DNA of 63,141 nucleotides, the filler included, from Licmophora abbreviata (Eukaryota), in the NCBI GenBank assembly GCA_900291995.1. It is 12 parts of 12 records of this genome, joined end to end, with 100 filler letters (N's around TTAATTAATTAA, not from the genome) between each part and the next. Parts side by side here need not be neighbours in the genome. Positions count along the whole stretch, not along the records: positions 31,163 to 42,512 come from OLMU01004387.1; 11 more parts are not named here. The stretch is one strand, 5' to 3'. Below, in pieces: positions 6,465-45,382 of this stretch; within the stretch, counting starts at the first letter, position 1; the number at the start of each line of letters is the position of its first letter. The position numbers and the translations under genes are program-made. Below the pieces are notes generated by a model. It worked only from the letters and a program-made list of their open reading frames with translations. It did not search any database and was not told the origin of the DNA.

Positions 6465-9400
6465 CTATCGCGCTTGCGAGTCGCGACTACTTTCCACTCC
6501 GGGAGACGTCTTTGGGAAGTACACATCCCCGCGACGGAGCTTGGCGTTCAGAGACGGCTCTGCGTATGACGCTGGTTGCTTGGTGACACGGCGTTGCTTA
6601 ATTGACTCCATGTACCGAGCTGCGGCAGAAGATGATGCAGCAGACCCATCGCCTTCTGGCGCTCCTCCGGTAGCCATAGCATCGAGAGCACGGCTTTCGG
6701 CATTCATAGACGCTGACGCCAACCTGTCCTGAAGCGAACTTGAAGACGTTAAGGGAGCTTCGCCACCAGCCTTTCTCGAAGAGCGACCATTTTGGCTAGC
6801 CACGATTCGCGCTGAACGATTCATCCGAAAGGAGCTCTCCTCTTCATCTGACGGAAGAGTGTTCCCATCCCGTTCGGCTGGCGATGGACGATGGGGTCTT
6901 CCACTTCTACTATCCGCCACGGATCCAGACAGAGCTTTACCTACCTGTTGGCTCGGGGATCTCGACCTATACGATCTCTGTGAATTAGACGTAGACTCAT
7001 CCAAAGTACCACGTTCTTTCTCCCTTCGCTGCTGCAGCCTCTTTAGAACCATACTTGGGCTATTCATCGAAACCTTGGCCCCCTCTTCATCATCACCTGA
7101 AAATGACGACGTCACTGAACCATCTTCGCTATTTCGATCCCTCGAGCTCTGGCTTCGTCCGCCAAATTCACCACGAGGATTCAGCGCCCGTTCATAGCGG
7201 GCTCGAGCAGAAGAGGGAATAGTCTTTTCCGGGCGCTCTGGATGTCCCATGGAGCTCGCTGGGCTCTTGTGTGACGACTGAGGAGGCGTGTGATATTGCT
7301 CGCGAGTTTTGCTTCGGCCAGTGAGACTTGGAGAAATTGATCGCTCTGATCTGTCATAGCTCGACGGCAACTCCGTCACATCCCCCCGACGACGAGTACC
7401 AGCCGTCGACTTGCCCAGATGCTCCTCGTCTTCAATCTTTTGTCGTTGTCGGTTCAGAATCGTCGATAGTGCAGGAGAGGCAGACGGAGATGGCCCGGAA
7501 GGAGAAGGTGCGCGAGGAGCTGATCCACCTTCTTTCAAGCGATCTCTTCCTTCCAAGGCTCGGGGAGTCGTCGTCACAGGAGACCGCTCGCGAATGTTTT
7601 TCGAGACAGGTGAACTCTCACGTACGCTATTGGAAACGAGCGTTCGCTCTCGAGACGTGTTCGATACATCAGCGCTCCCACTGCCACCATTGCGCGACGA
7701 CCAGTGTGCGCTATCATCATGACCGCTTTGATCGCCGGCGACGCGAGAAGTCAGAGCGCTTCCAGTCGATGGTGGCTTCGCTGGGCTCGCGACGAACGGA
7801 TTATAAAGTTCCGAGGGTGGTTTCTGTGCCTGCTGACGAGCCTCGTCCGACGGGGATGTGTTGCTGAAGCTCTCGGGAAAGGCGGTACTAAAAGATGCCT
7901 CGAAGGCGTCAATACTGCTGAGCTTCTTGTTCGCTGCTTCCCGAGCATTTGACACAACAGATGCCTCCGCATCGTCATCCTGCTGCTCTTCAATATCTTC
8001 GACTGCAGGCATGCGCCTCTCGTGATGAATGCTAGAAGGAGTAATGTCTGCCGGGAACTCATCGTTGTAGTTGTGCCTCTTTGTTACATGCGGAGACGCC
8101 GAGTTCGGGAAGAATCCTGATCCCGGGAGCTTTTCGTCCATGGGACGCGAGGAACTCGTTGCCGCGGTGGCACTCATTCCACTCATCCCGCTCATTCCAC
8201 TCAATCCACTTTGCTCCGATCCAGTCGAGTGATTTGAAGGCGATGACAGCTGTGAGTCGCCAGTTGCCTTTGTTGGCGACGCCAACGACGCCGAAGGACG
8301 CTTGGACGTGGCAAAGCCTGCAAAGAAATCTTCTTCATGGAGAGAGTCTTCATCCTCGCCATTGATATCATCATTACTCGGCGGAGGGGGAGGCGGCGCA
8401 TGCACTGCCAAGATACGATCCATTCGGTCCAATTCGACAGCGACGCTGGTCGAAGACGGACCGTTGTCGTCGCGTGCCAAGCTCGACAGCTCCGGTTCGT
8501 CTACAGATTCAGTGTCCGAGACGTTGGAGACGTTTCTTTACCCAAGACAGAGAGAGAGAGAGAGGAAGGCAATGAGATCAGAAAGACTGTATCAAAGTCT
8601 AGTTTGTCAGCGATTGGCTTGCCAAGCTGTGGAGCTACGTACCGGTGCAGCTCTCTCTGCTTTGCCAAGGCTTGCGCCGCTCTCTTTTGGTGCATCGCTA
8701 GCTCTTTCTTTAACATGGCTACATGACTCATCGCTTCCCGACAACGTGAAGCCAGGTTCATCTGGAGTGTTTTCGTTACGCAGGATCGTGAACGATCGTG
8801 TGAGCATGTATCATAGGACAGCGCACAGAGGGAAAAGTGACCCGAAAGTACATATCGACTCTATCGATCCATCAATCCATCCTCACTTACATTTTCCATT
8901 GTGAGTCTCGTCACATTTTTGGTTTCATCTCGATGGCGCACTCTCAATTCGCTCTGCAGAAGGAAAGAGCAAGGGGCGACAAAGTCTGTGAGCAAGCATA
9001 CTTGAATTATTGCAACAGGTAGCTTTGGCGCCGGTTCCCTCGTAACAAGAACACATCTTCCTTCCAGGAACCAGACGGTCCCGGCTAAACAAATCGCATC
9101 GTCTTGTTTCGTCCTGAAAATGTCGTTTCTTCATCTCTCTGTACCGACACCACCTCTCCAAGACCATTTTGAGCACCCAGACCGATAACAGAAAGCCTGC
9201 AAAACCTGTAGCAGGTTGCCAAGTCAGCATGGACCATCTCCCGGCTCCGACCTCCGAGTCTTCGAGTTCGTTCCATTTTCGTATTCCAGTAATGTCACTA
9301 GACTACAAAAAAGGCACACGTACCAATTCCTTTGCCAGCCGATAGTTTTTCGCGGTCAGAGCAGCTTCTTCTGGCGTTTGCTTTCGTCTTTGTGTACTCT

Positions 9401-10966: not shown

Positions 10967-11066
10967 NNNNNNNNNNNNNNNNNNNNNNNNNNNNNNNNNN
11001 NNNNNNNNNNTTAATTAATTAANNNNNNNNNNNNNNNNNNNNNNNNNNNNNNNNNNNNNNNNNNNN
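10967..11066. other. Artificial contig linker (44N-TTAATTAATTAA-44N)
   Basis: Identical 100-bp spacer with stops in all six frames, present 11 times in the window. Confidence 0.98.
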
Positions 11067-24632: not shown

Positions 24633-24732
24633 NNNNNNNNNNNNNNNNNNNNNNNNNNNNNNNNNNNNNNNNNNNNTTAATTAATTAANNNNNNNNNNNN
24701 NNNNNNNNNNNNNNNNNNNNNNNNNNNNNNNN
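24633..24732. other. Artificial contig linker
   Basis: 44N-TTAATTAATTAA-44N. Confidence 0.98.
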
Positions 24733-31062: not shown

Positions 31063-31162
31063 NNNNNNNNNNNNNNNNNNNNNNNNNNNNNNNNNNNNNN
31101 NNNNNNTTAATTAATTAANNNNNNNNNNNNNNNNNNNNNNNNNNNNNNNNNNNNNNNNNNNN
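31063..31162. other. Artificial contig linker
   Basis: 44N-TTAATTAATTAA-44N. Confidence 0.98.
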
Positions 31163-31164
31163 GA

Positions 31165-32040
31165 AAACCAGTTCGGATTCGACCGACCAGTGTGGAAACG
31201 GGACAGAGGCGGGACACCAGCGGTTCGCGTGTCTGCTCGACTCGGGTGAATTCAACATTGGCGCCACAACAACAACCAGCTTCTTCCGCGAGCACGGACG
31301 ATCCACGCGTGCAGCGTACACCAAGTACTAGGCGTCTGGGACGTAGCATTCCTCCTGTCCCATTAACATCGCGTACTACTCCGGACATGCAAGACTACAT
31401 GCAGCGGCGTCCACAACCACCACGGGCGTTTAGAGCATCTACTGGGACTCGTCGACAGCGCGAACCTCCCGAAAGAAGAAGTCTAGGTACAAGCCATGTC
31501 TCATCTTCACGTCATCCGGAGAGAGGATTTGTTGTGCGAACAGTCACTTCGACTTTCGATGATTCTACAGAAGGGACTCGGCGTCGACAGCAGGAAGCCA
31601 ATGCTACCCAGTCATCGACGCAAACTGCCATTCCCATCATAAGGTCTCCTCCTGCGAATCAGCAGTCGACGGATGTGCCCATGAGGCGCATCGATACTCC
31701 TGCGGGGCGTTCCTTTTGGGTTAGCGATGTTTTGTATCATGAATTGACTTCCACTAGGAGCTTGAACGCATCTTCGGCTCAGCGATTTGCAAGAGCTCGA
31801 TCTGGCGCAATCGAGTCCCAGATTCGTAGCTTGCCCGTGTCGATTGTACATAACCCTAACGATCTGCCTTCGAAATGCAGGCAGTGTGCAATCTGCCTTC
31901 AAGACTTTCAGCGGGGAAGCGAGCGCAAGATCCTTCCATGTATTCATGGCTTTCACACCGACTGCATCGATCAATGGCTACGAGACTTCCAAACATCATG
32001 TCCTTGTTGCCGAAGCTCTCTTGCAGCGAGATCACGTTGA
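31165..32040 (+). CDS. RING-H2 E3 ubiquitin ligase, 5' partial
   Basis: CAIC...LPCIHGFHTDCIDQWL.....CPCCR (C3H2C3) at the C-terminus; frame open to the contig start. Confidence 0.88.
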   Translation, partial: KPVRIRPTSVETGQRRDTSGSRVCSTRVNSTLAPQQQPASSASTDDPRVQRTPSTRRLGRSIPPVPLTSRTTPDMQDYMQRRPQPPRAFRASTGTRRQREPPERRSLGTSHVSSSRHPERGFVVRTVTSTFDDSTEGTRRRQQEANATQSSTQTAIPIIRSPPANQQSTDVPMRRIDTPAGRSFWVSDVLYHELTSTRSLNASSAQRFARARSGAIESQIRSLPVSIVHNPNDLPSKCRQCAICLQDFQRGSERKILPCIHGFHTDCIDQWLRDFQTSCPCCRSSLAARSR

Positions 32041-32201
32041 AATATGATAATAGACTAAGATTGCATAGGTTCTATTACAGAGACTTCTCCAGTAATCTAG
32101 CTCTGACACGCGTTTGAGTGATTTTAACTGCAACGGTCCTTGGAGAATATAACAGCGTTGTGATAGTCAGCCTCCTTCCCACCTGTACTCCGCCAGGCGT
32201 A

Positions 32202-33653
32202 CTAGCTAGAAGTACCTTTTCTGCTTGCCAATTGCAGTTTGGCTTCTCGCGCAATGATATCAGCCGCCGTGTCAATGTCTTCCGGACGCGTCGTCGGTCC
32301 CACACTCAGTCGCAGAGTGCCCATTGCAAATTCGGGAGGCACCTCCATAGCTTTCAATACGGCTGAAATGCCAGTACCTTCCGAGTGACAAGCCGCTCCC
32401 GCACTGGCAGCCACTTGATTTTGAATACATGCGAGCAACTCCCCACTGTGAATGTTTCGGAGCCCGACACTAAGCGTATTGGGCAATCGTAGAGATGGGT
32501 CGGTAGGTCCGTTCGGTCGTACCATGTCTTGTCCAAGCTCGTTCGTGAGATGGTCCAATAATCGTTGTCGCATCTCTTCCATATGCGCCGCATTCTGTTG
32601 CCATTGTTGTTTCACAAAATCAGCAGCTCTCCCCAGTCCCACGATATACGGCACATTCTCCGTGCCACCCCGCCGTCCAAACTCTTGGCCACCGCCCAGT
32701 AACAAGACACCCCCGTCGGCCAAGGCCCGTCCATGCTCTTGACAGCACTTGTCACGCACATAGAGCGCCGCCACTCCTTTGGGCGCCCCAATCTTGTGTC
32801 CAACAATGGTCACCATGTCAGGATAACCAAGACTTGCCAGCGATACGTCCACCTTTCCGACGGCTTGCGCCGCATCGGTATGAAACAGAATGTGTCGTTG
32901 ACGACAAGCTTCCGCCACCTCCCGTACCGGCTGCAGCGCTCCACTCTCATTGTTGGCCAACATGAGGGTGACCAAGACCGTGTTGGGACGACACGCGTCA
33001 ATGACATCTTGTGCTCGGACTCGTCCATCCCGCTGGACCGGTACAAAGGTGATGTCCACCATGGCATTGCGTTTCGCGACGGAACGGAGACAGACGTCAA
33101 TTGCAGGGTGTTCCACATTGGACGTGACAATATGTTTTTTCGGGGACTGGCCATCATCATCAGTACTGCTGCTCAGTGCCAGTTCAATCGCTAGATTGTC
33201 TGATTCGGTCCCACAGCCTGTGAACCAAATGGAGGAGAGCGGCTCGTCGTCATCGTCGCTATCAGCATTGAGCAGTGACAAGAGTGACCGACGGGCCCGA
33301 TCTACCGCCATCTTTGGAGCTTGTCCGTACCAGTGGGAGCTGGACGGATTTCCAAAGTGCATCGTGAGATAAGGAAGCATGGCAGTAAGCACGTGCGGAT
33401 GAATGGGTGTCGTGCCGTTGTAGTCCAAGTAGATGCAGTGATCCGAACGAGAACTCTCGCCACGCTGATGTAGCTGCAAGAGTAGTGACGACAGTTCATC
33501 GTCCGAGGCGGTACCGGTATCTATGAGATCACTGAACGCCCGGCGATTTCTAATACGCGGATTTCTTGCATAGCAGAAGTAAGAGAACGAAGCTGCCGCT
33601 GCAGATATCGCAAGCGCCAACCAAGGAGCCGTCTTGCTCTCTCTTAGTGTCAT
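32202..33653 (-). CDS. PLP-dependent cysteine desulfurase/selenocysteine lyase (class V aminotransferase, SCLY-like)
   Basis: YLDYNGTTP, FGNPSS, GTESDN, VEHPA, MLANNESG, HTDAAQAVGK, VGHK (PLP lysine), GTENV, SAGAACHS (catalytic Cys), LRLSVG. Confidence 0.9.
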   Translation of the reverse strand: MTLRESKTAPWLALAISAAAASFSYFCYARNPRIRNRRAFSDLIDTGTASDDELSSLLLQLHQRGESSRSDHCIYLDYNGTTPIHPHVLTAMLPYLTMHFGNPSSSHWYGQAPKMAVDRARRSLLSLLNADSDDDDEPLSSIWFTGCGTESDNLAIELALSSSTDDDGQSPKKHIVTSNVEHPAIDVCLRSVAKRNAMVDITFVPVQRDGRVRAQDVIDACRPNTVLVTLMLANNESGALQPVREVAEACRQRHILFHTDAAQAVGKVDVSLASLGYPDMVTIVGHKIGAPKGVAALYVRDKCCQEHGRALADGGVLLLGGGQEFGRRGGTENVPYIVGLGRAADFVKQQWQQNAAHMEEMRQRLLDHLTNELGQDMVRPNGPTDPSLRLPNTLSVGLRNIHSGELLACIQNQVAASAGAACHSEGTGISAVLKAMEVPPEFAMGTLRLSVGPTTRPEDIDTAADIIAREAKLQLASRKGTSS

Positions 33654-33915
33654 GGTGATGTGATCGTACAATCGCGATGCTGTTTGTGTTTTTCTCGGAA
33701 GCATGACATGATGTGTTCGCGTCGCGTGAGCTCTCATCACGCAAAAAGTTCGATGTCTTCGCGGGAGCGCGAAAAAGGACGAGACGTCGCGACTCATTCA
33801 CTCATCGACTCCTTAGCACTCCCGGGCTACGATGCAAGCACGAAGTGCAAAAGATGGACAGACTACATCATAGGATTTACAGTATGCAGTCGTTCCTCAG
33901 AGTTGCGGATCGGCT

Positions 33916-36900
33916 TCAGTGACGCAGCTTAGCAAGCGCTTGAGTTCGAAGCTTTTCCATTGGATTCAGTCCCAAAAACTGGAAAACTTCGTACTCGATG
34001 CGCCCACTGTAGCTGACTTCGACCGGATGCATACGCACTTCGTTCCACAGTCCACCAAAAAGCGTCCTTTCGAGAATTATATCCTTCAGATCCTGGTCCT
34101 GGTAGTTGTCCTCGCCCTGAATCCACTGCATCCACTGGAGCATCTCGATCGACACGCACTTGCTCCAAACACGCGCCGCCGCTTGAATGCGGACTTCCTC
34201 ATCTTCCATCGTCTTGGCGATTGCCAATCCAATCATGGCATACCGGATGGCGTCCTCTTTGTCTGTTCGGGCAGCGTCGATTTTATCGATGGCCTGCAAC
34301 AAGAGCTTCTCGGGCGTCTGCAGAGGCGACTCGGACTCATCTTGGCCAAGCATTTCTTGGGCTCGGACTAGCTCTAGCTTGGCACTCACTGTCTTACGGC
34401 GCTTGCGTGGCAATGTGACTTTGGCCAAACTCAAGGCTCGCTTCGTGTCGGCCAACGACGCGGCGTCCATCGCCGCATCCATGAGCCAGTCGCCGGCTTG
34501 ATCGTACTCGCCACTACGGACGGAGGCGATCCAACGGCACCGGATCAGGCGACGGTCGGTGTCGCACTTTTTCTTGAGCACCTCAGGTGCGAGACGTCCA
34601 TAGTTCAAAACGTCCGCGTAAAGTCCCTTTTCGGTAAACCAATCGAGTACGAATGATGCAAACGAGGTGTCGTGTTGAAATGTGGCAAACAAGGGCTCCA
34701 GCTCAAAGCCGACGTCCTTACGGTGGTCCAGCGCCATCTGACACAGTCCCTCAATCCAACTGTGGTCGACCGCAAGCTGAAAGGCTAGATCATCATTAGG
34801 AATCTGTCGAATAAGCGAAATGCCAACTTGCTTTAAATCCTTGTACGACGCCTCAGACGATGGAGATTCGCCTCTCGATTCTCGATGCGACTGTAGCGCC
34901 AACGTGACAATGAGTTTCGTCTGCTCTTCCACGAGCGCATCCGCTTCATCCCACAGAACCTGTCGCAAGAGCTGCTGCAAGGCACCTTGTGTCGTCAGAA
35001 GCAAACGCAATCCCAAAGGCGGACCAGTGGTAGGATCCACAATGTCGTACTTGTTCTGTGCATAGTCTTGACGAAACGCGTCGGCAGCTTGCAATGCAAT
35101 GCAGAGGCCTTCGAGCGACGTGGCGTCGTTCGGAGAATGCCACTCCCGCAATTTCTGTGCCACAGCATCGGTCGGAAGTGCCGCATCCGTCTGACGGAGC
35201 ATCGCACGATGCACCGCAAGCTCTTGTCCAATGCCCAGCAACGTCCACCGCGCTCTCGAGGATGAGAGCGATCGATAAATGCCACCCTCTTGGAGCAACG
35301 TAATGAAGGCCAAGTGACATTCGAGTGGATTGGCATGATGCGGATGGACTTGCAGTTGCTTGGCCGTCTCCAATACGGCGCGTTCCAGCGGTCCAGCCTC
35401 TGCCATTTGCAAGGACGGAGGCAGTCGCAATTCTCCCCCTTCGCCATGTTGGTAGTAATGCCAAAAGGCGGATTGCAAATGACGCGTCAGCGTCTGTACA
35501 ATCACTGCATCGTCCGCCTCCGAGAACGATGCGACACTACGCTCGTCGCACTCCGCCCCATGGCAGCGACTCCGAATGCACAATCCAGTCTGCGCCAACC
35601 CCCAGCACCCATGCGTGACTACATCTCGTCCCAAGGTTCCTGGAACAAACCGAGGAACGTGAGTCACGGGTAAGTCCACCTCGTGCATACCATAGCTAGT
35701 AGCGGTGGAATCCATGCTGACACACGTGATAGGACCAATCCCATTTTCATATTGAAACATGGCATAGGTGGTGTGTGGTTTCGTACATACCAGTCCGACA
35801 CACGACACGTCGGGATGGAAGCGATTTAACCAAGCCGCGGATGCAAGAGTAAAGGATGGTGTAGTAGTAGTGGTATCGACAGTTCCGATGATCCAATAGA
35901 TGCGAGTCTTCTTGTAGCAAACAATCGCATGCAGTGTAGTCTCATCGACGGCACTCTGCAGTACTTGTACGGAAGAACGATGACGGCCCGATGCATCGCC
36001 ACTTATTCCTCCTTTTTCTTGTTGTTGTTGATCCAGCACGACGTCTCCCAGTGTCACAAGATGTGTTTCGACAAAGTTGCTGCTCGCGTTGTCACTACTA
36101 GAACCTGGAGATGATGCTGTCGTTCCTTGCCAGACTTCCACTAGACCAGATTTGGTTATACTGACAAAGGCGACCTTGTCGTTGTTCTTGCTGTTGTTAG
36201 TAGAGGCAACTGTCGTCATTGTGATGGACAAGGCGTGTACACCACAGACGGCATCCTCCACCTGTAACTGTTCGGATCCACTGGTCGTTCCAAACGACAA
36301 GAATCGTCCCATCCAACTACCACCATTACTACTACTCTTGCGCTCCAACTCGCTCGCATAGAGCATACAAGGCAGTGGTGTATGATAGCACCAAAAGATT
36401 CGATTGTGGGACGTTCCAAGGACAAAAGTATTGTGGTTGTGACTTGTAAGACATGTCAAGTGTTCGCCTTGACGCAAGTGCAAGACTAGTTTGCTGTCCA
36501 TGGTTTTGGGGAGCAGTGAGGGTGGCGCTGTCACGTTGAGTTTCCAAAACAAGACTAGACCGGTGGTGGGATGTGCTGTCAAGACGTGAAGAAAGTGAGG
36601 AGTGTGTCGAGAGGGTGAAGTAAAGGAGGAATGAGCTCCTCTTTTGGAAGTTTTAGTAGTAGAAGTGCTGCTGCTGCCGAGTGCGAGCAAAATGGAAGGA
36701 CGAGGAGCGGAGGAAGACGGTGAAGCGGCAGCAGCAGTAGGTGGTTGTTGCTGCAGGAGAAGACTGGGGTGAAAGCAGGCGTGCACCGTCATGGGTGGCA
36801 GAAAAGGTCCTCGATGTGTACTACTACTAGAAGTACTCGTAGTACCGGTAGTAGAAGTAGTAGTCGTCGTCGTATTGCTAGGATGACTCGGCGTCGCAGT

Positions 36901-37113
36901 AGTAGTAGTCGACCAAATGCGAATCTGATCTCGTCCATAGACAGCCACGTATCCATCATTGTCACTTCTTGCACCGACCACTGTAGTACTGCTTTCCGTG
37001 GCGAGGACTTCTCTCAAGACTTTCTTGGGTGCACACGAGACGACCGAGACGTCCCAAGGATTGTCTCGACTGGGACGAACCAATGCCGTCGTATCGGAAT
37101 CACCGGATGACAT
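33916..37113 (-). CDS. NUP133: Nucleoporin Nup133-like
   Basis: 1065 aa; beta-rich N-half and helical C-half with FASFVLDWF.EKG....L, RWIASVRSGEYDQA...L...A and TKRALSLAKV, matching the Nup133 C-terminal pattern. Confidence 0.68.
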   Translation of the reverse strand: MSSGDSDTTALVRPSRDNPWDVSVVSCAPKKVLREVLATESSTTVVGARSDNDGYVAVYGRDQIRIWSTTTTATPSHPSNTTTTTTSTTGTTSTSSSSTHRGPFLPPMTVHACFHPSLLLQQQPPTAAAASPSSSAPRPSILLALGSSSTSTTKTSKRGAHSSFTSPSRHTPHFLHVLTAHPTTGLVLFWKLNVTAPPSLLPKTMDSKLVLHLRQGEHLTCLTSHNHNTFVLGTSHNRIFWCYHTPLPCMLYASELERKSSSNGGSWMGRFLSFGTTSGSEQLQVEDAVCGVHALSITMTTVASTNNSKNNDKVAFVSITKSGLVEVWQGTTASSPGSSSDNASSNFVETHLVTLGDVVLDQQQQEKGGISGDASGRHRSSVQVLQSAVDETTLHAIVCYKKTRIYWIIGTVDTTTTTPSFTLASAAWLNRFHPDVSCVGLVCTKPHTTYAMFQYENGIGPITCVSMDSTATSYGMHEVDLPVTHVPRFVPGTLGRDVVTHGCWGLAQTGLCIRSRCHGAECDERSVASFSEADDAVIVQTLTRHLQSAFWHYYQHGEGGELRLPPSLQMAEAGPLERAVLETAKQLQVHPHHANPLECHLAFITLLQEGGIYRSLSSSRARWTLLGIGQELAVHRAMLRQTDAALPTDAVAQKLREWHSPNDATSLEGLCIALQAADAFRQDYAQNKYDIVDPTTGPPLGLRLLLTTQGALQQLLRQVLWDEADALVEEQTKLIVTLALQSHRESRGESPSSEASYKDLKQVGISLIRQIPNDDLAFQLAVDHSWIEGLCQMALDHRKDVGFELEPLFATFQHDTSFASFVLDWFTEKGLYADVLNYGRLAPEVLKKKCDTDRRLIRCRWIASVRSGEYDQAGDWLMDAAMDAASLADTKRALSLAKVTLPRKRRKTVSAKLELVRAQEMLGQDESESPLQTPEKLLLQAIDKIDAARTDKEDAIRYAMIGLAIAKTMEDEEVRIQAAARVWSKCVSIEMLQWMQWIQGEDNYQDQDLKDIILERTLFGGLWNEVRMHPVEVSYSGRIEYEVFQFLGLNPMEKLRTQALAKLRH

Positions 37114-37437
37114 GGCGCTATCAGTCAGACAGACAGTGCGATTAGACTTCCCTACAGAGCACTCTTGAAGCGATGCGATGAAGTCAATGCTGCAAAGACA
37201 TTCACATGTACCGCATCAAGTGTGTGTCGACGCCGTTTTACCATGATGTGGTTGGGGCGCCGGGGCACAGACACACTTTCATACTGCTCTCCAGTCGTAT
37301 ATCTCACACACGATGTCTACCTGACTGACACAGAAAAGGCAGAAATGCGCGCATCAGAAACGTTTTGCGCGCGCAGTACTGGTACGAAAAGATCGGACCG
37401 CACAAATCATTCAACATCATCGACGACGACGACGACC

Positions 37438-38479
37438 ATGAGGAGACTCCTAGCATCCACGACAACAAGAGCGTTCTTAGTAGTAGTAGGATCAATCCTG
37501 CTACTGTGTTTGCTTCCAAAGCCGTCAGAAGCTTTCAGTGCTCATGGTTCTTTCCTTTCCAACAAATTCCGAGTAAAAACTCGAACGACGACGCTCGTGA
37601 TGTTCAGCACGACATCAACAACACCACCACCACGACCATCCGAGAGCCGCATTCAAAGTGCAAAAGAGGACATCGACCCCGCGGTATCAAGGCACATACT
37701 TCCCAAGACGGTAGTTACGTCCTTGTTTGCCGCCATGATGATGCTAACAACAACATCGTCGTCCGTAGCGCACGCCTACAATTCGGGTGATTTTGCCAGT
37801 GACACGGTGCAGGCAGTCGTACAGTCCTTGCAACAGGCGGGCGGAAATACGGAACAGACCTTCAAGGCCTACGAGAGTATTGCGGATATCATTACGGAGG
37901 GAAGAGGTGTCGGTGGTTCCATCAATTATCGTGAGTTGTGATCCATCGCACTGTCAACTTGAGTATACTAGCTGCTACCACACAATGGCAGGTGGTGGTC
38001 GATTTGGAATATACAGTGCAAACAGCAACATGTCGCCGTCGTTCTCCTCTTACACTGTGTTCTTCTCTCCCTTATTTACGATTTTCTCTGCTTCAGAGGG
38101 CGTTCAGCTGGAACGAGGCTATGTTGCCGATGAAGACACTGCCATTTACAATCCCGGCTTGACTCTCCTCACCGAATCCGAAAAGGAACGATTGGTCGAA
38201 GCCATCGTTCAGTCTCGCAAGGCAGGACTTAGTTCCAACAATGGCTGGAGCGAAAACAATCAAGTGGCCTATGACTTTTTAAAGGAAAAGTTGGATCCAC
38301 TGCACATGCTCGAACTCAAGGGCTACCTTGGCATTGTGCCATTTTATGGTGCGGTATTGTACTTGGGAGTCTTGGCTGTGCAGCAGCTTTCGAGGGACCT
38401 CTTTGCGCCAGCCTATCTGGTGGCGGCAGGCTTGTTCTTTGCACCCATTCTAGCATTGGTGGCCTTGGGACCACAGTAA
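37438..38479 (+). CDS. Plastid (probably thylakoid) protein of unknown function with two C-terminal TM helices (2 exons: 37438-37930, 38097-38479)
   Basis: Signal peptide + SEA-FS, Ser/Thr/Arg-rich transit, second hydrophobic signal ending AHA; GTGAGT...TCAG intron joins INY-Q-GVQLERG in frame. Confidence 0.78.
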
Positions 38480-39236
38480 CGAGAGTGCAACGGCGAGATG
38501 CTCTTCTTGATTGATAACAGAAAGTATGAATGATATGGCGAGATACTCTTCTTGGTTGGCACAGGATATCAAAACAGAGCGACGTCATGATGAGCGACGG
38601 TGATGGTGTCCTTGTATGGTTCACAATTGTTTGCTATTCGTACCTCGTACGTAAATAGTGCTCGCACTGTAGTTTATCCTGCCGTTGTTCACCCCCGCCC
38701 TCATTCGCACCTGTGTGATGAATCCTTTTTGGATCATCATCGACGTCCCTGCCTCATCGCACTGCGGCTCACCACAAAAATAGTCGAGTGAGTCAAATTC
38801 TGGTAGTCGAGTGACTCAAACAAGAATCTCTCACAGATTTTGGTCGGCACGAGCACTTAGCATTTTCTAGCATTTCATACGCAGATTCTTCTAATTAAAA
38901 CGAAACATATGAGAAAGGAACGCTGGAAAATGCGCGGGTGTCTGAGATGCATCCCGCGCAGATGAGGGTGTCAGACATCTCTCGAAGCACAAAAGATCGC
39001 GTCGTTGTCAGTTTTGTTCTTTCACAATCTCATCCAAGCTGGAAGCAACCAGTCAACAAGCCAAGACCTCTACCTTCTTTCTGACATACCACATTCGACT
39101 TCTGTGTACGACACAGGTTCTTGAGTGTTGCGCGCTTTGGACGTACCGTCGGTCATCGTGTATACTTCATAGATTCGAAACTCGCCCGAAGGTCGAAAAA
39201 ACTTCTCATTCATTCACCGTATCTTTGTATTCCGCC

Positions 39237-42200
39237 ATGTCCTGTGCAACTCCAAAGTCCTTTTCGAGCATTGTCTTTGTGCGGGTTGGGAATGCCGAGC
39301 ATCTCGCAACACTTCTTCAAGACGACGACGGCGATGACAACTACGCAAGCGTCATTTGGCACTCCAGCGGCCGGCAAGAAACAGTGCTTCGCTCTAACGT
39401 GCTTCACACACTCAGTGAACTCCCGAAACTTCGTACTCGTGGACCATCGACCGTGAACTCTGATAAGGCAGCCACTTCTACCACCAAGCGCCCAGTCATT
39501 CCCGACTCAAAACCACCGGCGAAGAAATCGAAAAGGAAAATCTCGCGCACGGACACTCTGGAACAAGATCTGTTGACAGAGGATCCGCAGGATCCTTTTC
39601 TTGACACGGACGATGAGGATTTGTTTGATAATGGTTGTGATGAGTTAGCCTCCGGCTCTGTCGCGACGGAGCAGCAGACACTATTGAAGGCTGGAACGCG
39701 CATCAAGAAGGTAAGGATCGTGTTGGTAGGGCTCGTGGCTTATTTCGATTGCTTCCCAATTCATGCTAAGAGCGAGTTGTATTTCTGTTTTCAGTACTTT
39801 CCCCGTAGCAAGCGCAACGTCAAGGCTGGTTGGCACGAAGGTCTCATTCAAGAGGTGGCTGAGTGTCGTCAAGGACAGCGCTTTCGTATTCAATACGATG
39901 ATGGCCATGGTGAAGTCGTCAGGAACCGCGAGGGCATCGAGATCGTTGGGCGCAATCCATCCGTCACCGGAAGCGCTGATGATAGCGATGACGAGGACGA
40001 CTTGTTTCGTAGTGATTCGGATGACTGTGCGCCTGTAGAATGCAGTGAACAGTTCGTTGACTACAGTCACGAACCTCTCACCTTCGTTACGCCTCCCAAG
40101 CAACCCCGCACCAAGACGATAAGGCCTACCAATGTCTACCGATATGACGAGCCTGTTCCGATCTTTCAAGAAGAGACAGAGCGCGTCCAATACTTTTTGA
40201 AGTCATACTTTGGACACCGGCTCCATATTACCGAAACTTGTCTCGATGATGTTGACGAACTCGAAAAGACGATAGAAATCGACAATCGGGTCTACGAGTT
40301 GGTCGTCGCCAAAATGAAGAAGAACGAAGGGAGAAACGCAAAGTATGCCTCCTTCGAGAGAAAGATAGTCCGAGCTTACTACGTGGCAGCTGGTGGAAAG
40401 CTGTGCAAAGAATTGAGTAAGCTTGGCGACTTTACAGGCATCGGAGTGGCGGGGAAAATCGCCTCCAGACTAGAGCTTATGGTCTCGACTGCGGCCTGGG
40501 GACACAACCGCCATGATCCGTTGCAGTTTGAGCTGAAAGCTGGCGACTTTGAACTTATTCCGGAGAGGTTTCATGATGGGTGCGGATTCGCGCCCTTCTC
40601 GTTCTTCGAAACTTGCCTCGTCAGCAGCAGTATGGTACAGTCTACTGACGTACTCCAGGTACGAATCTTTGGGGCCAAGATAGGATGGTACAAGGGTCTA
40701 TTGATGAAGAAGCCCGGCATTGAAAAGATTCAGCTTCCGTGTTCAATGCGCAAAGTCGAGAAATCTCGTAGAAAGAACTCCTCAAACAAGGTGTTTTTGA
40801 TTGTGACTGGCTTGTTCCCATCCGAACAGTCCAAGATGGTTGGCCGATACCTCAATCCTTCTAGAGTCGACCCACCGGAACGTTGGCGCGAAAGGAACTT
40901 AAGAGGCTTAGAAGGATATGATATGTACTGGAATCTGTTGCGGTTGAATGGCGTACCCGAAGAAGTTATCAAGGATTACAGCGACAACTCTAGAGAATGG
41001 GAAAATCACAAGCACGCCTCACTTGTCGGGGTCGCCGATCCAAGTGCTATGCTACCGAGGGATACCGTTTTCATTTCTGGTTTTGGTACAGTCGCCTCGG
41101 ATGATCCTGGAAATATTGTAAGGTTGAGAGTTTTAGTATCTCGATTCCCTTGCACAGAGAAGGGCGACTTGGTTTGTCTTGACTGTATTCGAAGTAAACC
41201 ACCCGGTATGACAGACAACAATTGGGAGTTCTTCGAGCAGCTTTCGTTCGGTGCTATCGTGTTTGCCGCTCCAGGCGATGGAAAAGATCCTATTCCACAT
41301 CGCATTGCAGATGGTGATCTCGACGGCGACTTGGTGAGTCCGAGAGGCGGCAAGGTCACATTATGTCGAAACGTGTGCTAACCGTATTCCACTTTGTGGC
41401 TAAACTGCAGTACATATGTCTTTGGGTGAGAAGGTAGAAGCCGGAACTGTTCCTGCAAGAAGAATTTCACGCCTAACAGATTCTATTTTTCTCCACGTTA
41501 AACTTTCAGGACGAAGAGATCATGTCGTGCGTTGAGAACAGCAATGTAGCAGATGCTGCTCCACCGGAAGTTGAGAATGACGACCCTTTGCTTCGCTCCG
41601 GCTTTAAACTGGACGGGCGTTCCGTCGTCGTCATTAAGAAAGTGAGTGCGGAGGAGTATGAGGTCGAGCTGCAGAGTGATGGGACAACGATGACTATGAC
41701 GAGGGCGGAAATACTTGAGGGCCGTGACCATGTTGAAAAGATCTTGTCTCATAACGCATCAAAAAGGCCGGAGGTACTTGTCAAGTGGGCATCCGAAGAT
41801 GAGCCAATTTGGGGACACGTAAACAATCTGCGAGTGGAGATTGAATCTCAGTTGGCTCAATACGCAGTTGACAATGGTCTGCTTGAAACCTCGGGATGGA
41901 AGTGGGCATCAAGATATGTTTCAGAATCTGAGATGATGCAAATTGTGGACCATCGTGGCGTTGGGCGGGATATCGAGGTCAGCGTCTTTTTTGACGACGG
42001 GACGAAGGAGTGGAGGCACATAAAGCAGGTGAAGCAAGACGCAAAGGACTTGCTTGTCGAATACTGCAGAGAGAAGGGTTTGGAAGATGAGGAAGGATGG
42101 GACTGGGTCGTATCCTACTGTAATCGCATGAAGAAGAAGTGGTTTCAAACCGCGCAGAATTACATCGCGGATGCCAGAAAGCTCCGTGAACATGATCGGC

Positions 42201-42388
42201 TGACCTCCTCACTACACTCCGAATACAAGAAGAGCTGCCAGAAAGGCGACATTGCGTCCATGGAGGCGTTTGGACGGGCTTACAAGGAATCAATCGAAAT
42301 TCGGAAACACGGGGGCAAAGTGCATTTACGAAGTGCGTTGCACGCGAACATCAAAGAAAAGTGTCTAAAAAGCTATCTCACCGTGTGA
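39237..42388 (+). CDS. RdRP: Cellular-type RNA-dependent RNA polymerase with Tudor-like and tandem chromo-like domains (exons 39237-39710, 39795-41333, 41411-41425, 41510-42388)
   Basis: Ordered RdRP motifs LGDF..KIASRLEL..ST, FHDGCG, LQVRI..G.YKGLL, IQLPCSMRK, LVGVADP, VLVSRFPC..KGD, AIVF, ADGDLDGDL-YICLW-D; all introns GT-AG and frame-preserving. Confidence 0.88.
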
Positions 42389-42512
42389 GAGTAGGAACGA
42401 GACTTGGAGTTATCCCCTCACTTGGACAATTACATATAATGCATCTAAGACTTCACGAGCTAGAACTCGCGTAGTTGTACTCTCGCTTTCTTGTTTGAGG
42501 TCATTTCGCTTT

Positions 42513-42612
42513 NNNNNNNNNNNNNNNNNNNNNNNNNNNNNNNNNNNNNNNNNNNNTTAATTAATTAANNNNNNNNNNNNNNNNNNNNNNNNNNNNNNNN
42601 NNNNNNNNNNNN
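42513..42612. other. Artificial contig linker
   Basis: 44N-TTAATTAATTAA-44N. Confidence 0.98.
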
Positions 42613-42725: not shown

Positions 42726-45382
42726 ATGATGTTCTGTAAACTGATCTCTCGAAATGGTGGTTTGGTGGCTCACCGCCGGCGTCATTCCACCCGCTTCTTT
42801 CGGATGAGTCCACGATTGTATGATGCCCAGGGTGCTGATGCTGATGCGAATCTTTTCCGTCGGTGCTCTTCGTCGCTTTCCAACAACAACAACAACAACA
42901 ACATTAGCAAGCAGGGACGCTCTTTTTCGTCATCTTCCTGCTTCGTCTTGCCCAACGAGAAGAGTCTGTACTGTTGGGCTGTGTCTCGTACGATCCCGCT
43001 GTCGGTACGATCTGGGGCATGATGCGAGACTATCTAAGACAAAGCGCAGCTTCTAGTAGTGATTTACTGCTGAGAAACTTTGATTTCATCTTGTACTCCA
43101 ACTACGAGCAATAGGTCCGAGCGCTGATGGAAGGAGACATTGACATTGCTTGGAACGGACCTTTGGCGCATGTCATGTGTGAACGGCATGCCGATATCGT
43201 CTCCTTGGGCATGCGAGATGTGGATTGCGACTTTGAGTCGATCGTGGTGGTGACAAGAAAGAGTGGAATCCAATCGAAACGGGATTTGAATGGCGCTCGT
43301 TTGCTTTCTGGTGCTCAAGACTCACCGCAGGGTCATGTCATACCGCTGCACTACCTCAAGGACAACGACATTCGTGTGACTGTGGACGCTCAGAATCTTG
43401 ACATCGGAAAACATGGGGATACAGCTCTGGGCGAAATCAAAGCGATGGAAACACTTCTCGTGAATGGCTTCTCGTCAGATCAGAATCCTCTGCATCAAGG
43501 TGCTCTTCTCTCCCGTATGATGTGGGACCGAGCCGTCGACGGACAGCTCGACACTGTCCACGCCTCGGAGCTCCAAGATCGTATCACTATTCTATCAGAC
43601 GCCACAATTCCAACCTTTGACCATTGCCAATTCGATGCTTTGAAAGCCACTGCCGATACGGGCAAGCTAGACTCGTTCTACAACACGCTGCACGGCATGG
43701 ACTATGACGATCCGGTACAACAGCCCATCATGAAGTTGGAAGGGATCCGTCGGTCGTGGGCCAAACCCCGACAGGAGGGATACGACATCGTGAGAGCTGC
43801 TATGGGTGTATCGGTAGGATGGCGACAAGCGCAGAACTATGTACCCCATGGCGTGAAAACATCTGTGCGAGCATTCTCGACGACTGCTGCTGCATGCAAC
43901 AGGCGACTGGCACCGGGTAGCCTTGTGGGAGTGATTGGATGCGGTGTGGCAGGTCTACAAGTCATTCGGTCCATGCGTGCTCGAGGATACGATGTAACAG
44001 CCTTTGACAAGGCGGATGACGTAGGTGGACTCTGGCGAGAAAATTATGCAAACTTTGGCCTGCAGGTGCCGAAGCAGTTTTATGAATTGCCCGACTTGGA
44101 AATGACCGAAGCGTCGTGGGGCGAGCTGGCATCGGGACCCAAGGTGCAGGCGTACATTCAACGGTTCGCCTCGGAGTTCGACCTAATGAGTGCTACGCGG
44201 CTGAGTACGGAAATCGAAAGGGTGGCGCGCAGTCCTGATGGCACGTGGATGTTTCACACGAAAGCGGGTGAGCAACATGACTTTGACTATTGTGTCGTTT
44301 CGACCGGCATGTATTCTAGCGTCCCCTTCGTACCGGATGTACCCCGCAGAGAGAGTTTCACTGGACTGTCAATTCACAGTAGCCAGTTCAAGGATGCAGA
44401 TTCTGTAAAGGAAAAGCGAGTCGTCGTCGTTGGCGGCTGCAAGAGCGCCACAGATTGTGCCACCAGTGCCGCAAACGCAGGAGCGAAGTCCGTTACCATG
44501 ATTCAGCGGCAAGCTCACTGGCCAACGCCACTTTACATCGCCGGACTCATTCCATTTCAACACGTTTTCTTGAGTCGCCTCGGTCAAGCTCTCGTAGAGG
44601 CCAAGGTCGGAGTATATCCCGGCAGCCATTCTAGTGCTTCCATGTTTCGTCCTATCATGGGAGCAGTATTTGCCATCGTTGAGCAGCTATTCGCCTTTCA
44701 ACTAGGGCTCAAACTTGATTTGCGTCCGAAGAGCGGCGTCGTCGAAGACTTTTACGGCTACGCTGCGGTGCAAGACGGCAGCTTCAAGGCTGTGCGCGAT
44801 TCGGGCATGGTCGATGTCAAGCTGGGAGTAATCGAATCGTTCACTGACGCAGGCGTGAGTCTCAATGGCAAGGACATTGAGGCAGATGTGGTCATTTTTG
44901 CAACCGGTTTTGGGAAAGACTACGGGAAACTATTTGAACCTGGTGTCATGAAATCACTGGACATTCAGAAGGACGGACTCTACTTGTACAAGCGTATTTT
45001 GCCACCTTCCGTTGAAGATCTTGCCTTTGTTGGGGCCGAGGCTGCGACTATCTTCAACAGCACCTGCTCGGGCTTGCAAGCCGAGTGGCTAGCTCGCACC
45101 CTCGCCGGGGAGACGCAGGCGGATCTCGATGACGAGTCGGTCTCTAGCGAAGTTATTTCTTTCCGCGACTTTGCCCGCTCTTGGATGCCCGCAACGGCGT
45201 CCCGCTCTGCGCTTGTGTTGCTCCACCAACTTCACTACTACGACCAGCTGCTTGAGGACATGGGTGAGAATCCGGCACGAAAGTCTAACTCTGTGGCCGA
45301 ATACCTTGGGTCATACTACAGCCGTGACTACAACGGTATCGTCGGACGCCCCGGTCGCGTTGTTCCCGTCGCCGCAAAGTGA
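42726..45382 (+). CDS. Fusion of a PhnD-like solute-binding domain and a flavin-containing monooxygenase; 5' part has a frameshift (~42939) and an in-frame TAG (43112)
   Basis: VLLGCVSYDP..GTIW, FDFILYSNYEQ*V.AL..G.IDIAWNGPL, MRDVD, DSPQG..IPL, GKHGD, FDHCQF; then GCGVAG, GGLWRENY, FTGLSIHSSQFK (FMO fingerprint), VVGGCKSA, FATGF; intact ORF 43127-45382. Confidence 0.82.
42881..42903. repeat. (AAC)n microsatellite (poly-Asn in the putative presequence)
   Basis: caacaacaacaacaacaacaaca read directly. Confidence 0.9.

Follow-up and report, generated by a model that had tools for sequence, protein, structure and literature searches.

The locus described here raises the question of why a cellular RNA-dependent RNA polymerase (RdRP) gene should encode two chromo-like repeats in its last exon, and of where those repeats came from. 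The window, by which we mean the whole 63,141-base stretch of Licmophora abbreviata DNA that was analysed (GenBank assembly GCA_900291995.1), carries this gene on the piece at positions 31163-42512. The original prediction, made from the sequence alone, placed the repeats at 41729..42109, as an insertion within the polymerase that resembled the chromodomains of diatom copia retrotransposons. The reading that we prefer, and hold to be moderately probable, is that a host RdRP of a diatom-type clade has had a copia-homologous cassette inserted into it, and that this cassette works as a targeting or adaptor module. The observation itself is real and more than chance; the domestication of the cassette and its function are what we infer from it.

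The repeats form two tandem units of ~67 residues each, encoded at 41720-42118:

41720..41920, + strand: chromo-like unit 1 (unit profile E 1.7e-20)
41918..42118, + strand: chromo-like unit 2 (unit profile E 1e-23), acidic, net charge -8

Compared by BLASTP, repeat 1 (41729-41920) and repeat 2 (41921-42109) align without gaps over 57 columns (28.1 bits, E 5e-7), of which 12/57 are identical (21%) and 25/57 similar (44%). No further copy of the unit was found in the six frames of the 63-kb window by a 68-column unit profile, which was seeded with both window repeats and iterated over fetched relatives. The frame 41477-42388 is open throughout and yields the peptides that the original prediction quoted, and the pattern read from them (I..H, V.V.W, W, Y....L....W.W) matches columns of the profile that are conserved among RdRP-side relatives, including His at column 12 (77/79 first units, 76/77 second units), Tyr at column 49 (79/79 and 76/77, respectively), and Trp at column 61 (58/79 and 60/77).

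An AlphaFold model of the last exon (3-row alignment; mean predicted local distance difference test score (pLDDT) 76.5; predicted template modelling score (pTM) 0.36) gives each unit (residues 75-136 and 142-188) three strands with a long and a short helix: strands 75-82, 88-93, and 100-103 with helices 104-121 and 131-136 in unit 1, and strands 142-151, 154-161, and 166-170 with helix 171-188 in unit 2. The three-stranded sheet packed on a C-terminal helix, by which chromodomains are recognized, is present in the model. Tandem chromodomains occupy the top Foldseek rows, namely CHD4 (E 1.6e-3), CD2-CD3 of cpSRP43 (E 6.3e-3), CHD5, and CHD1 (probability 0.95-1.00, E 1.6e-3 to 2.7e-2). VIA, a structure search independent of Foldseek, returned chromo and chromoshadow domains of HP1, Chp1, Rhino, SUV39H1, and Polycomb at Z 5.5-7.4, a range that is middling by the tool's own note, with a root-mean-square deviation (rmsd) of 1.2-3.4 Å. 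Unit 1 is matched there by the Rhino chromoshadow domain (Z 6.4, 1.2 Å over 42 residues), and unit 2 by the HP1alpha chromoshadow domain (Z 7.4, 2.3 Å over 55 residues) and the dHP1 chromodomain (Z 6.4, 1.4 Å over 50 residues), with further matches to Chp1, Rhino, SUV39H1, and Polycomb. These VIA rows, though middling in Z, are consistent with each other. Both units are thus predicted to have the chromo/chromoshadow fold, for which "chromo-like" is the right term, and the proposal of two such repeats is borne out by BLASTP, unit profile, and modelled fold together. When the last exon was searched as a single sequence against Pfam and solved chains, no significant match to either unit came up, and an ESM Atlas search gave leads only (scores 0.81-0.90).

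Is the arrangement peculiar to this gene? A full HMMER pass of the 177-residue insert against 1.84 billion representatives (E ≤1e-3) yielded 103 proteins. The RdRP domain PF05183 is carried by 55/103 at E ≤1e-3 (35/50 in one scan set, 19/52 in another, and P0003), 4 of them under the gathering score, and in these carriers the Pfam match mostly ends at profile position 450-490, with the units coming next. Short fragments with tandem units account for 31/103; 17 show the K-H-G-G or W-F...Q tail or the upstream D-G-D, and the other 14 are too short to classify by their flanks. The remaining hits are 12 copia-type proteins, 4 multi-unit proteins (P0052, P0065, P0090, and P0105), and 1 spurious one: P0012 (2282 residues, 18 matching stretches) was rejected as a repeat match to a short A-Q-W-A-V-D-N-G-like string. 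Nearly all RdRP-side proteins have exactly two units, and this two-unit arrangement is conserved across many divergent RdRPs. The named relatives from diatoms (n=3) are Stephanocyclus meneghinianus, a CCRYP record, and an MMETSP record starting "Thala". A third unit near the N-terminus, far upstream of the core, is present in P0037 (95-160) and P0017 (424-480), and the extra unit of P0037 shows the transposon-like features D-P-x-x-L-A-x-Y-A and G-W-x-W-A; these third units could stem from repeated capture or from internal copying.

Among the multi-unit hits, P0065, P0090, and P0105 have three or four copies of the extended chromodomain, and none of the three has an RdRP, a reverse transcriptase, or the barrel described below. 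In P0052 (544 residues) an ADP-ribosyltransferase-like N-terminus (PF03496, E 4.1e-7) is followed by six canonical Pfam chromodomains, an unusual pairing.

Outside the RdRPs, the chromodomains of copia-type polyproteins appear by sequence to be the closest relatives of the units found among these representatives, which agrees with the original view that the repeats resemble copia polyprotein chromodomains more than the HP1 type. In all 12 copia-type hits the chromodomain continues, as in unit 1, into L-A-x-Y-A, L-L, and W-K-W-A-x-R-Y; Pfam Chromo recognizes 11/12 at E <0.1, and three of these exceed the gathering score. RVT_2 lies downstream of the unit in P0079, and a search with the P0079 unit yielded two polyproteins, P0106 (weak rve match 410-499, unit 786-858, RVT_2 935-1153) and P0107 (unit 1149-1216, RVT_2 1300-1510). 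The window units match P0106 by BLASTP at E 5e-12 (unit 1, 35% over 88 columns) and 1e-4, and P0107 at E 2e-7 and 4e-7 (unit 2). Metagenomes scanned for the motif D-D-P-[IV]-T-L-A-x-Y-A gave 38 confirmed loci. In 37/38 the sequence around the unit is collinear with P0106 over its integrase and/or reverse transcriptase, and the one exception is a 1.7-kb contig that holds the unit alone. The columns both conserved and common with the transposon type are His 12, Trp 32, Leu 46, Tyr 49, Ala 50, Leu 55, Trp 61, and Trp 63, and hhalign pairs the RdRP C-terminus profile with the transposon-type profile at 98.4% (E 6.8e-15). The transposon-type profile in turn reaches 20 solved chromodomain sequences at E ≤0.01 (cpSRP43 5e-6, CBX1 2e-4, HP1 4e-4), and homology to accepted chromodomains is found by way of these transposon-type intermediates. 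With cpSRP43, the best solved-sequence match, the family profile of the RdRPs itself gives E 0.0018.

The likeness to copia extends beyond the repeats first noticed. Because the hhalign alignment continued upstream of the chromodomain, a second profile was built from the 60 residues preceding unit 1 in 67 RdRP-side relatives, and it describes a further domain:

41600..41716, + strand: small beta-barrel, first domain of the cassette (four strands and a short helix, residues 31-69 of the model)

The elements of the barrel in the model are strands 31-34, 37-44, 49-54, and 60-64 and helix 65-69. The barrel profile matches the window at 41552-41734 (E 2.7e-13). Among 243 targets (294,277 residues) it hits six copia loci (E 4e-7, 5.5e-6, 3.5e-5, 4.4e-5, 1.2e-4, and 3.9e-4), all of these copia matches being in the frame of the chromodomain and 11-19 residues upstream of it; the best hit in a reversed-target control had E 3.2. 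Iteration extended the matches to 22 transposon targets, with the barrel ending 11-19 residues before the unit in 15/16 loci (best reversed-control E 0.25). At locus L016 a single BLASTP segment runs from the barrel through the chromodomain (E 9e-11, 35% over 106 columns). The barrel profile did not find the barrel in the multi-unit proteins or in RdRPs that have no insert. Barrel plus one unit is homologous, as one collinear cassette, to the segment of copia (RVT_2) polyproteins between the integrase core and the reverse transcriptase, and in our sample this two-domain cassette is common only to the polymerase insert and the copia polyproteins. The part that is shared is a two-domain cassette, since the barrel is common to both.

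A chromodomain at the integrase C-terminus is described for one diatom Ty1/copia clade in the available parts of two studies (CoDi-A, Llorens, 2009; CoDi-I, Ustyantsev, 2017). The polyproteins compared here likewise carry one unit between integrase and RVT_2, and share the extended motif and the upstream barrel with the polymerase insert; we call them copia-type by their own domains. The polymerase differs in having two units that lack two of the cage aromatics, and in that its cassette lies not in a retrotransposon polyprotein but in an intron-bearing host gene with no reverse transcriptase or integrase nearby.

The aromatic cage bears on a different origin, namely that a pair of host chromodomains of the ordinary HP1 or CHD kind was fused in and reads methylated histone tails, tethering the polymerase to heterochromatin. 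One protein would then combine what is divided in fission yeast between Chp1 and the RNA-directed RNA polymerase complex, and in plants between SHH1 and Pol IV-RDR2. The modelled chromo fold would fit such a pair, as would the tandem chromodomains of CHD4 and CHD1 at the top of the Foldseek rows; the central cage residue is still Trp or Tyr in 66/79 first and 75/77 second units, and CHD1 reads H3K4me3 with two aromatic residues only. The other two cage positions, however, are almost never aromatic. The three cage columns hold D, W, and E in unit 1 of the window and S, F, and D in unit 2; aromatic residues occupy them in 8/79, 66/79, and 0/79 first units and in 0/77, 75/77, and 1/77 second units, so that the incompleteness of the cage, suspected from the window, holds for all RdRP-side units (full three-aromatic cage in 0/156). 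The replacements are mostly Asp, Asn, Glu, or Ser. Canonical methyl-lysine reading by RdRP-side units is unlikely, because none of them retains the full cage. Nor do the library hits point to host chromodomains: outside the RdRPs they are the 12 copia-type, 4 multi-unit, and 1 spurious proteins listed above, and the canonical units of P0052 score 7-14 bits per domain vs 36-48 bits for the copia type and fragment hits in the same search. The C-terminal W-x-W extension and the upstream barrel, both in common with copia polyproteins, also speak against a fused host pair, which we consider unlikely.

That the units were set into the polymerase, as originally proposed, rather than appended to its end, follows from the segment behind them, which aligns with the C-terminus of relatives that have no unit. 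Two further features frame the cassette:

41528..41599, + strand: acidic linker, predicted to be disordered, at the start of the insertion (pLDDT <50, residues 1-24)
42134..42385, + strand: conserved helical RdRP tail (W-F...Q, then K-H-G-G; helices 198-245 and 248-264 of the model)

Between W-D-x-x-I and W-F-x-x-x-Q the window polymerase has ~200 extra residues; a variable linker (30-50 residues) occupies this place in insert-less relatives. The tail (82 residues; P0001 209-290) matches the last 86 residues of P0112 by BLASTP (E 5e-16, 38% identical) and the C-terminus of insert-less P0116 (E 6e-9), and the barrel and units have no counterpart in either. A search with the polymerase core gave 14 long relatives, 8 without any unit; in 7/8 of these the Pfam RdRP match extends without interruption over profile positions 346 to 538-547 (of 582), whereas in P0120 it ends at 449. 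The claim that the tail is the RdRP's own C-terminal segment is accordingly sustained. Matches of the tail in VIA were rejected as informative likeness, being generic helical hairpins, and the family profile did not detect the tail by sequence in solved RdRPs.

All 8 insert-less proteins terminate 120-145 residues past the catalytic DLDGD motif, vs ~299 residues beyond the Asp triad in Arabidopsis RDR2 (chain of 1133 residues), and the window polymerase ends ~20 residues past its K-H-G-G segment. On these lengths, most of neck 3 and of the head seems to be missing from the diatom-type clade. In the available text of Fukudome (2021), the Asp-triad loop of Arabidopsis RDR2 is at 828-836, and the second double-psi barrel is followed by a loop that crosses the secondary channel, then by the bridge helix, trigger loop, neck 3, and head. 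By this domain order, the tail would correspond to the bridge-helix and trigger-loop segment, and the insert would sit in the loop that leads from the second double-psi barrel to the bridge helix. So placed, the module would project from the surface near the secondary channel, with the catalytic core unbroken. Arabidopsis RDR2 and Neurospora QDE-1 have the catalytic loop and second barrel in common with the window polymerase, differing in that only the catalytic stretch aligns by sequence and that the clade appears to be short of most of neck 3 and the head.

Retention of the module speaks to the explanation that it is a neutral relic or an annotation artefact, a functionless transposon fragment that is in frame by chance. 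A tree of the polymerase core (37 rows) requires two changes for the insert, with six insert-less proteins forming one group (Shimodaira-Hasegawa-like approximate likelihood ratio test (SH-aLRT) 90), and a relic would be compatible with the absence of the insert from P0112 and P0113, two proteins near the window polymerase in this tree. Against it, two units with conserved His, Tyr, Ala, Leu, and Trp columns persist in relatives that share just 25-43% identity with P0003, the open frame continues into the conserved tail, and no reverse transcriptase or integrase is present among the open reading frames (ORFs) scanned on the contig. We regard a relic or artefact as very improbable.

Who gave the cassette to whom is less clearly answered. 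Four unit trees were built on 66 usable columns; the careful tree and the approximately unbiased (AU) test used a 57-unit sub-sample of 126 units (22/70 RdRP, 18/39 transposon-type, and all 17 multi-unit rows). The 57-unit tree separates the transposon-type units, both RdRP units, P0090, and P0105 from the canonical P0052 and P0065 units (ultrafast bootstrap 91, SH-aLRT 87). Unit 2 is a clade in it (96/98), which fits one old duplication, and the second unit appears on this basis to be an old internal duplicate; a grouping of both RdRP units is unsupported (47/0). In two larger trees, built quickly, the RdRP units fall inside a transposon-type grade, though support is weak. Read together, the trees are silent on the direction of transfer. 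Of the idea that a transposon-derived domain was domesticated, the likeness to copia stands; the transposon as donor does not follow, since the trees leave the order open (AU p 0.278), and the decoy or targeting function proposed with it is conjectural.

Character evidence says somewhat more. Three cage aromatics are present in 10/39 transposon-type units and two in 23/39, and because transposon-type units keep more of the canonical cage while no RdRP unit has all three aromatics, this evidence favours transfer from transposon to host, or a common source, over transfer from host to transposon. We lean slightly toward capture of the cassette from a copia element. The converse, that copia captured the cassette from a host polymerase, or that both received it from another host family with extended chromodomains, is possible and seems to us clearly less probable. 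It draws on the trees, which leave the groups unordered, on P0065, P0090, and P0105, which show the extended unit outside both contexts, and on the report of the chromodomain in one copia clade only (Llorens, 2009; Ustyantsev, 2017, available parts), which would imply acquisition in the transposon too. Its difficulty is that the transposon-type units lie nearer to canonical chromodomains, as judged from the full cage in 10/39, the Pfam Chromo matches, and the 20 solved chromodomain sequences reached, so that transfer from cage-less polymerase units would require the cage to be regained. The profile search, moreover, found the barrel only in RdRP inserts and copia polyproteins and not in the multi-unit proteins.

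Some results weigh against the reading of a copia-homologous cassette in a host RdRP as a whole. The last-exon model has no Foldseek match to solved structures at E ≤0.001, and Pfam Chromo (PF00385) does not match either window repeat even at E ≤10; among RdRP-side relatives its matches are sub-threshold only (P0006, P0058, P0061, and P0104, 19.6-22.0 bits vs 25.1). All units in the trees were recruited by their likeness to the window, with canonical chromodomains only from P0052, and the sampling is to that extent biased. One sub-sample tree makes the transposon type a single group (SH-aLRT 83), and the AU test does not reject transposon-type monophyly (p 0.278). A third, host source is possible given the arrays of P0065, P0090, and P0105, which could represent the source family. 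Lastly, insert-less P0112 and P0113 sit near the window polymerase in the core tree, with weak support, a position that reflects either loss of the insert or a gene model that skips an exon.

Granted the preferred reading, what would the module do? The cassette would have entered the polymerase gene from a copia element, or polymerase and element would have it from one common source, and it would then have been kept under selection. With two of three cage aromatics replaced, it would no longer read methyl-lysine. The median net charge is -4 for unit 2 (-8 in the window), -2 for the barrel, and +1 for unit 1 (-3 in the window), and this acidity speaks against a plain RNA-binding surface and favours a basic peptide or a protein as ligand. 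The module would therewith be a non-catalytic targeting or adaptor part of the polymerase, its acidic units binding a basic peptide or protein partner. The copia integrase cassette possibly uses the same partner, be it a chromatin feature or a host factor, and the module would then place double-stranded RNA synthesis at transposon loci or transcripts.

Alternatively, the module may bind RNA, holding template or product near the active site in place of the apparently missing head domain. Some chromodomains and small barrels bind RNA, and by the short C-terminus of insert-less relatives (120-145 residues after DLDGD vs ~299 in RDR2) much of the neck-3 and head region would be absent. In the available text of Fukudome (2021), the authors speculate that the head tip guides the template. 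The acidity given above is ill-suited to RNA, however, and insert-less relatives in the same clade do without the module; RNA binding is in our view improbable. A more specific version of the targeting function holds that the silencing polymerase took over the address label of the copia integrase, the cassette that leads the integrase to its chromatin site or host factor being captured, duplicated, and relieved of methyl-lysine reading. This version is doubtful; if it were true, the RdRP would be drawn to whatever partner or place attracts incoming copia elements and would make double-stranded RNA where they land, and the extra N-terminal transposon-like units of P0037 and P0017 would suggest repeated captures in an arms race.

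Comparison with characterized proteins refines the picture. HP1 chromodomains and chromoshadow domains are alike in the three strands packed on helices (VIA Z 6.4 and 7.4), and the second short helix of the units resembles, in the model, the two-helix layout of chromoshadow domains; the window units differ in having no match to Pfam Chromo or Chromo_shadow, no full cage, and an additional W-x-W extension. The tandem chromodomains of CHD1 and CHD4 and CD2-CD3 of cpSRP43 likewise place two adjacent chromo folds in one chain, and are the best Foldseek matches, although they belong to other host proteins and deviate by 8-15 Å rmsd over the pair (pTM 0.36); the likeness therefore covers the single units and not their mutual arrangement. 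Chromodomains of cpSRP43 bind basic peptide motifs, not methyl-lysine, which fits an acidic, cage-poor polymerase module.

In fission yeast, the RNA-induced transcriptional silencing complex and the RNA-directed RNA polymerase complex (RITS-RDRC, with the Chp1 chromodomain), and in plants SHH1-Pol IV-RDR2, use a reader module that brings an RdRP to silent chromatin. The analogy is functional only, although the Chp1 chromodomain and the SAWADEE domain of maize SHH2 are among the fold matches: in the Chp1 and SHH1 systems reading is done by a protein apart from the RdRP, its methyl-lysine pocket intact, whereas here the module lies inside the polymerase and has no such pocket.

The available parts of structural papers on cellular RdRPs make no mention of a chromo insert, and a full-text search, with subscription journals outside its coverage, found no description of a chromodomain in a diatom or stramenopile RdRP. 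Diatom RdRPs are listed as putative only (De Riso, 2009; Rogato, 2014) and are given without domain detail (De Riso, 2009; Rogato, 2014; Maumus, 2011) in those parts of the papers that were available. A conserved module in the polymerase that is common with the copia polyprotein would offer a concrete, testable handle on how diatom silencing is aimed at the abundant copia elements. A host defence enzyme and a transposon would, moreover, clearly be making use of one and the same two-domain cassette, and the loop that follows the catalytic barrel in two-barrel RdRPs would be seen to accommodate 200 inserted residues.

The polymerase gene itself was modelled from two frames. The first, 38946-41381 (+), matches Pfam RdRP (PF05183) with 71.7 bits (cut-off 23.8; E 7.1e-20; profile 346-441/582) and stops just past D-G-D-L-D-G-D-L; the second, 41477-42388, is not in the same frame, and canonical GT..AG sites connect the two via a 15-nucleotide micro-exon, as follows:

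39237..42388, + strand: cellular RdRP gene, four-exon model of ~968 codons (from ORFs, Pfam, GT..AG sites, and the homologues P0002 and P0003)
39237..39710, + strand: exon 1, N-terminal region, acidic and basic, of low complexity, with a possible small barrel
39711..39794, + strand: putative intron 1, 84 nucleotides, in frame, GTAAGG..TTTCAG; read-through possible
39795..41333, + strand: exon 2, RdRP core up to the catalytic loop (Pfam RdRP profile 346-441/582)
41316..41330, + strand: catalytic Asp-triad motif DLDGD, read in the sequence
41334..41410, + strand: putative intron 2, GTGAGT..CTGCAG
41411..41425, + strand: micro-exon of 15 nucleotides, YICLW, with AG and GT flanks
41426..41509, + strand: putative intron 3, GTGAGA..TTTCAG
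41510..42388, + strand: last exon, from the end of the core through linker, barrel, both units, and tail to the stop codon (translation P0001)

The catalytic columns D680, D682, G683, and D684 are invariant in a 36-row family alignment, and the family profile matches solved RDR2 (7eu0) across the catalytic loop at E 6.8e-10 and 2j7n at E 2.7e-5. Intron 2 is proposed because it is needed to reach the conserved Y-x-x-L-W after DLDGDL (as in P0003 and P0002), and in relatives DLDGDL, Y/F-L-L/C-L-W, and D follow without interruption. The RNA reads of one run assemble into two short contigs over the gene, 39391-39573 and 42203-42375, and neither spans an intron, so that conservation is the sole argument for the putative micro-exon. 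In P0002, the five micro-exon residues are contiguous with DLDGDL and are followed by an unspliced intron.

The cassette unit and barrel profiles have no match in the N-terminal exons of the window polymerase, and the Tudor_5 matches of exon 1 are weak (E 0.024). Two short small-barrel-like stretches are nevertheless discernible at 39237-39950, one reading I-V-F-V-R-V...V-I-W-H and a second interrupted by the putative in-frame intron 39711-39794. In a sister group of diatom-type RdRPs without the chromo insert (P0115, P0116, P0117, P0120, P0121, and P0122), the N-terminal half has small barrels of KOW, SPT5-KOW-like, or KIN17-SH3-like type.

The window consists of 12 contigs, each junction being 44 N + TTAATTAATTAA + 44 N:

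10967-11066, 24633-24732, 31063-31162, 42513-42612, and seven more sites: linkers between contigs

The contigs are joined artificially, and gene order across the linkers therefore carries no meaning. No reverse transcriptase or integrase was found among the large ORFs scanned with Pfam in the window, including two on the RdRP contig. The neighbours scanned on that piece (31163-42512) are a class-V aminotransferase gene and a large ORF without a Pfam match; large ORFs on other pieces encode a flavin monooxygenase, a PrmA-like methyltransferase, and a HAD hydrolase. On the next contig, a single frame at 43115-45379 fuses a phosphonate-binding periplasmic-type domain (PF12974) with a flavin monooxygenase (PF00743), and the frame at 6468-8537 (-) has a Shugoshin C-terminal motif (PF07557, E 3.6e-6).

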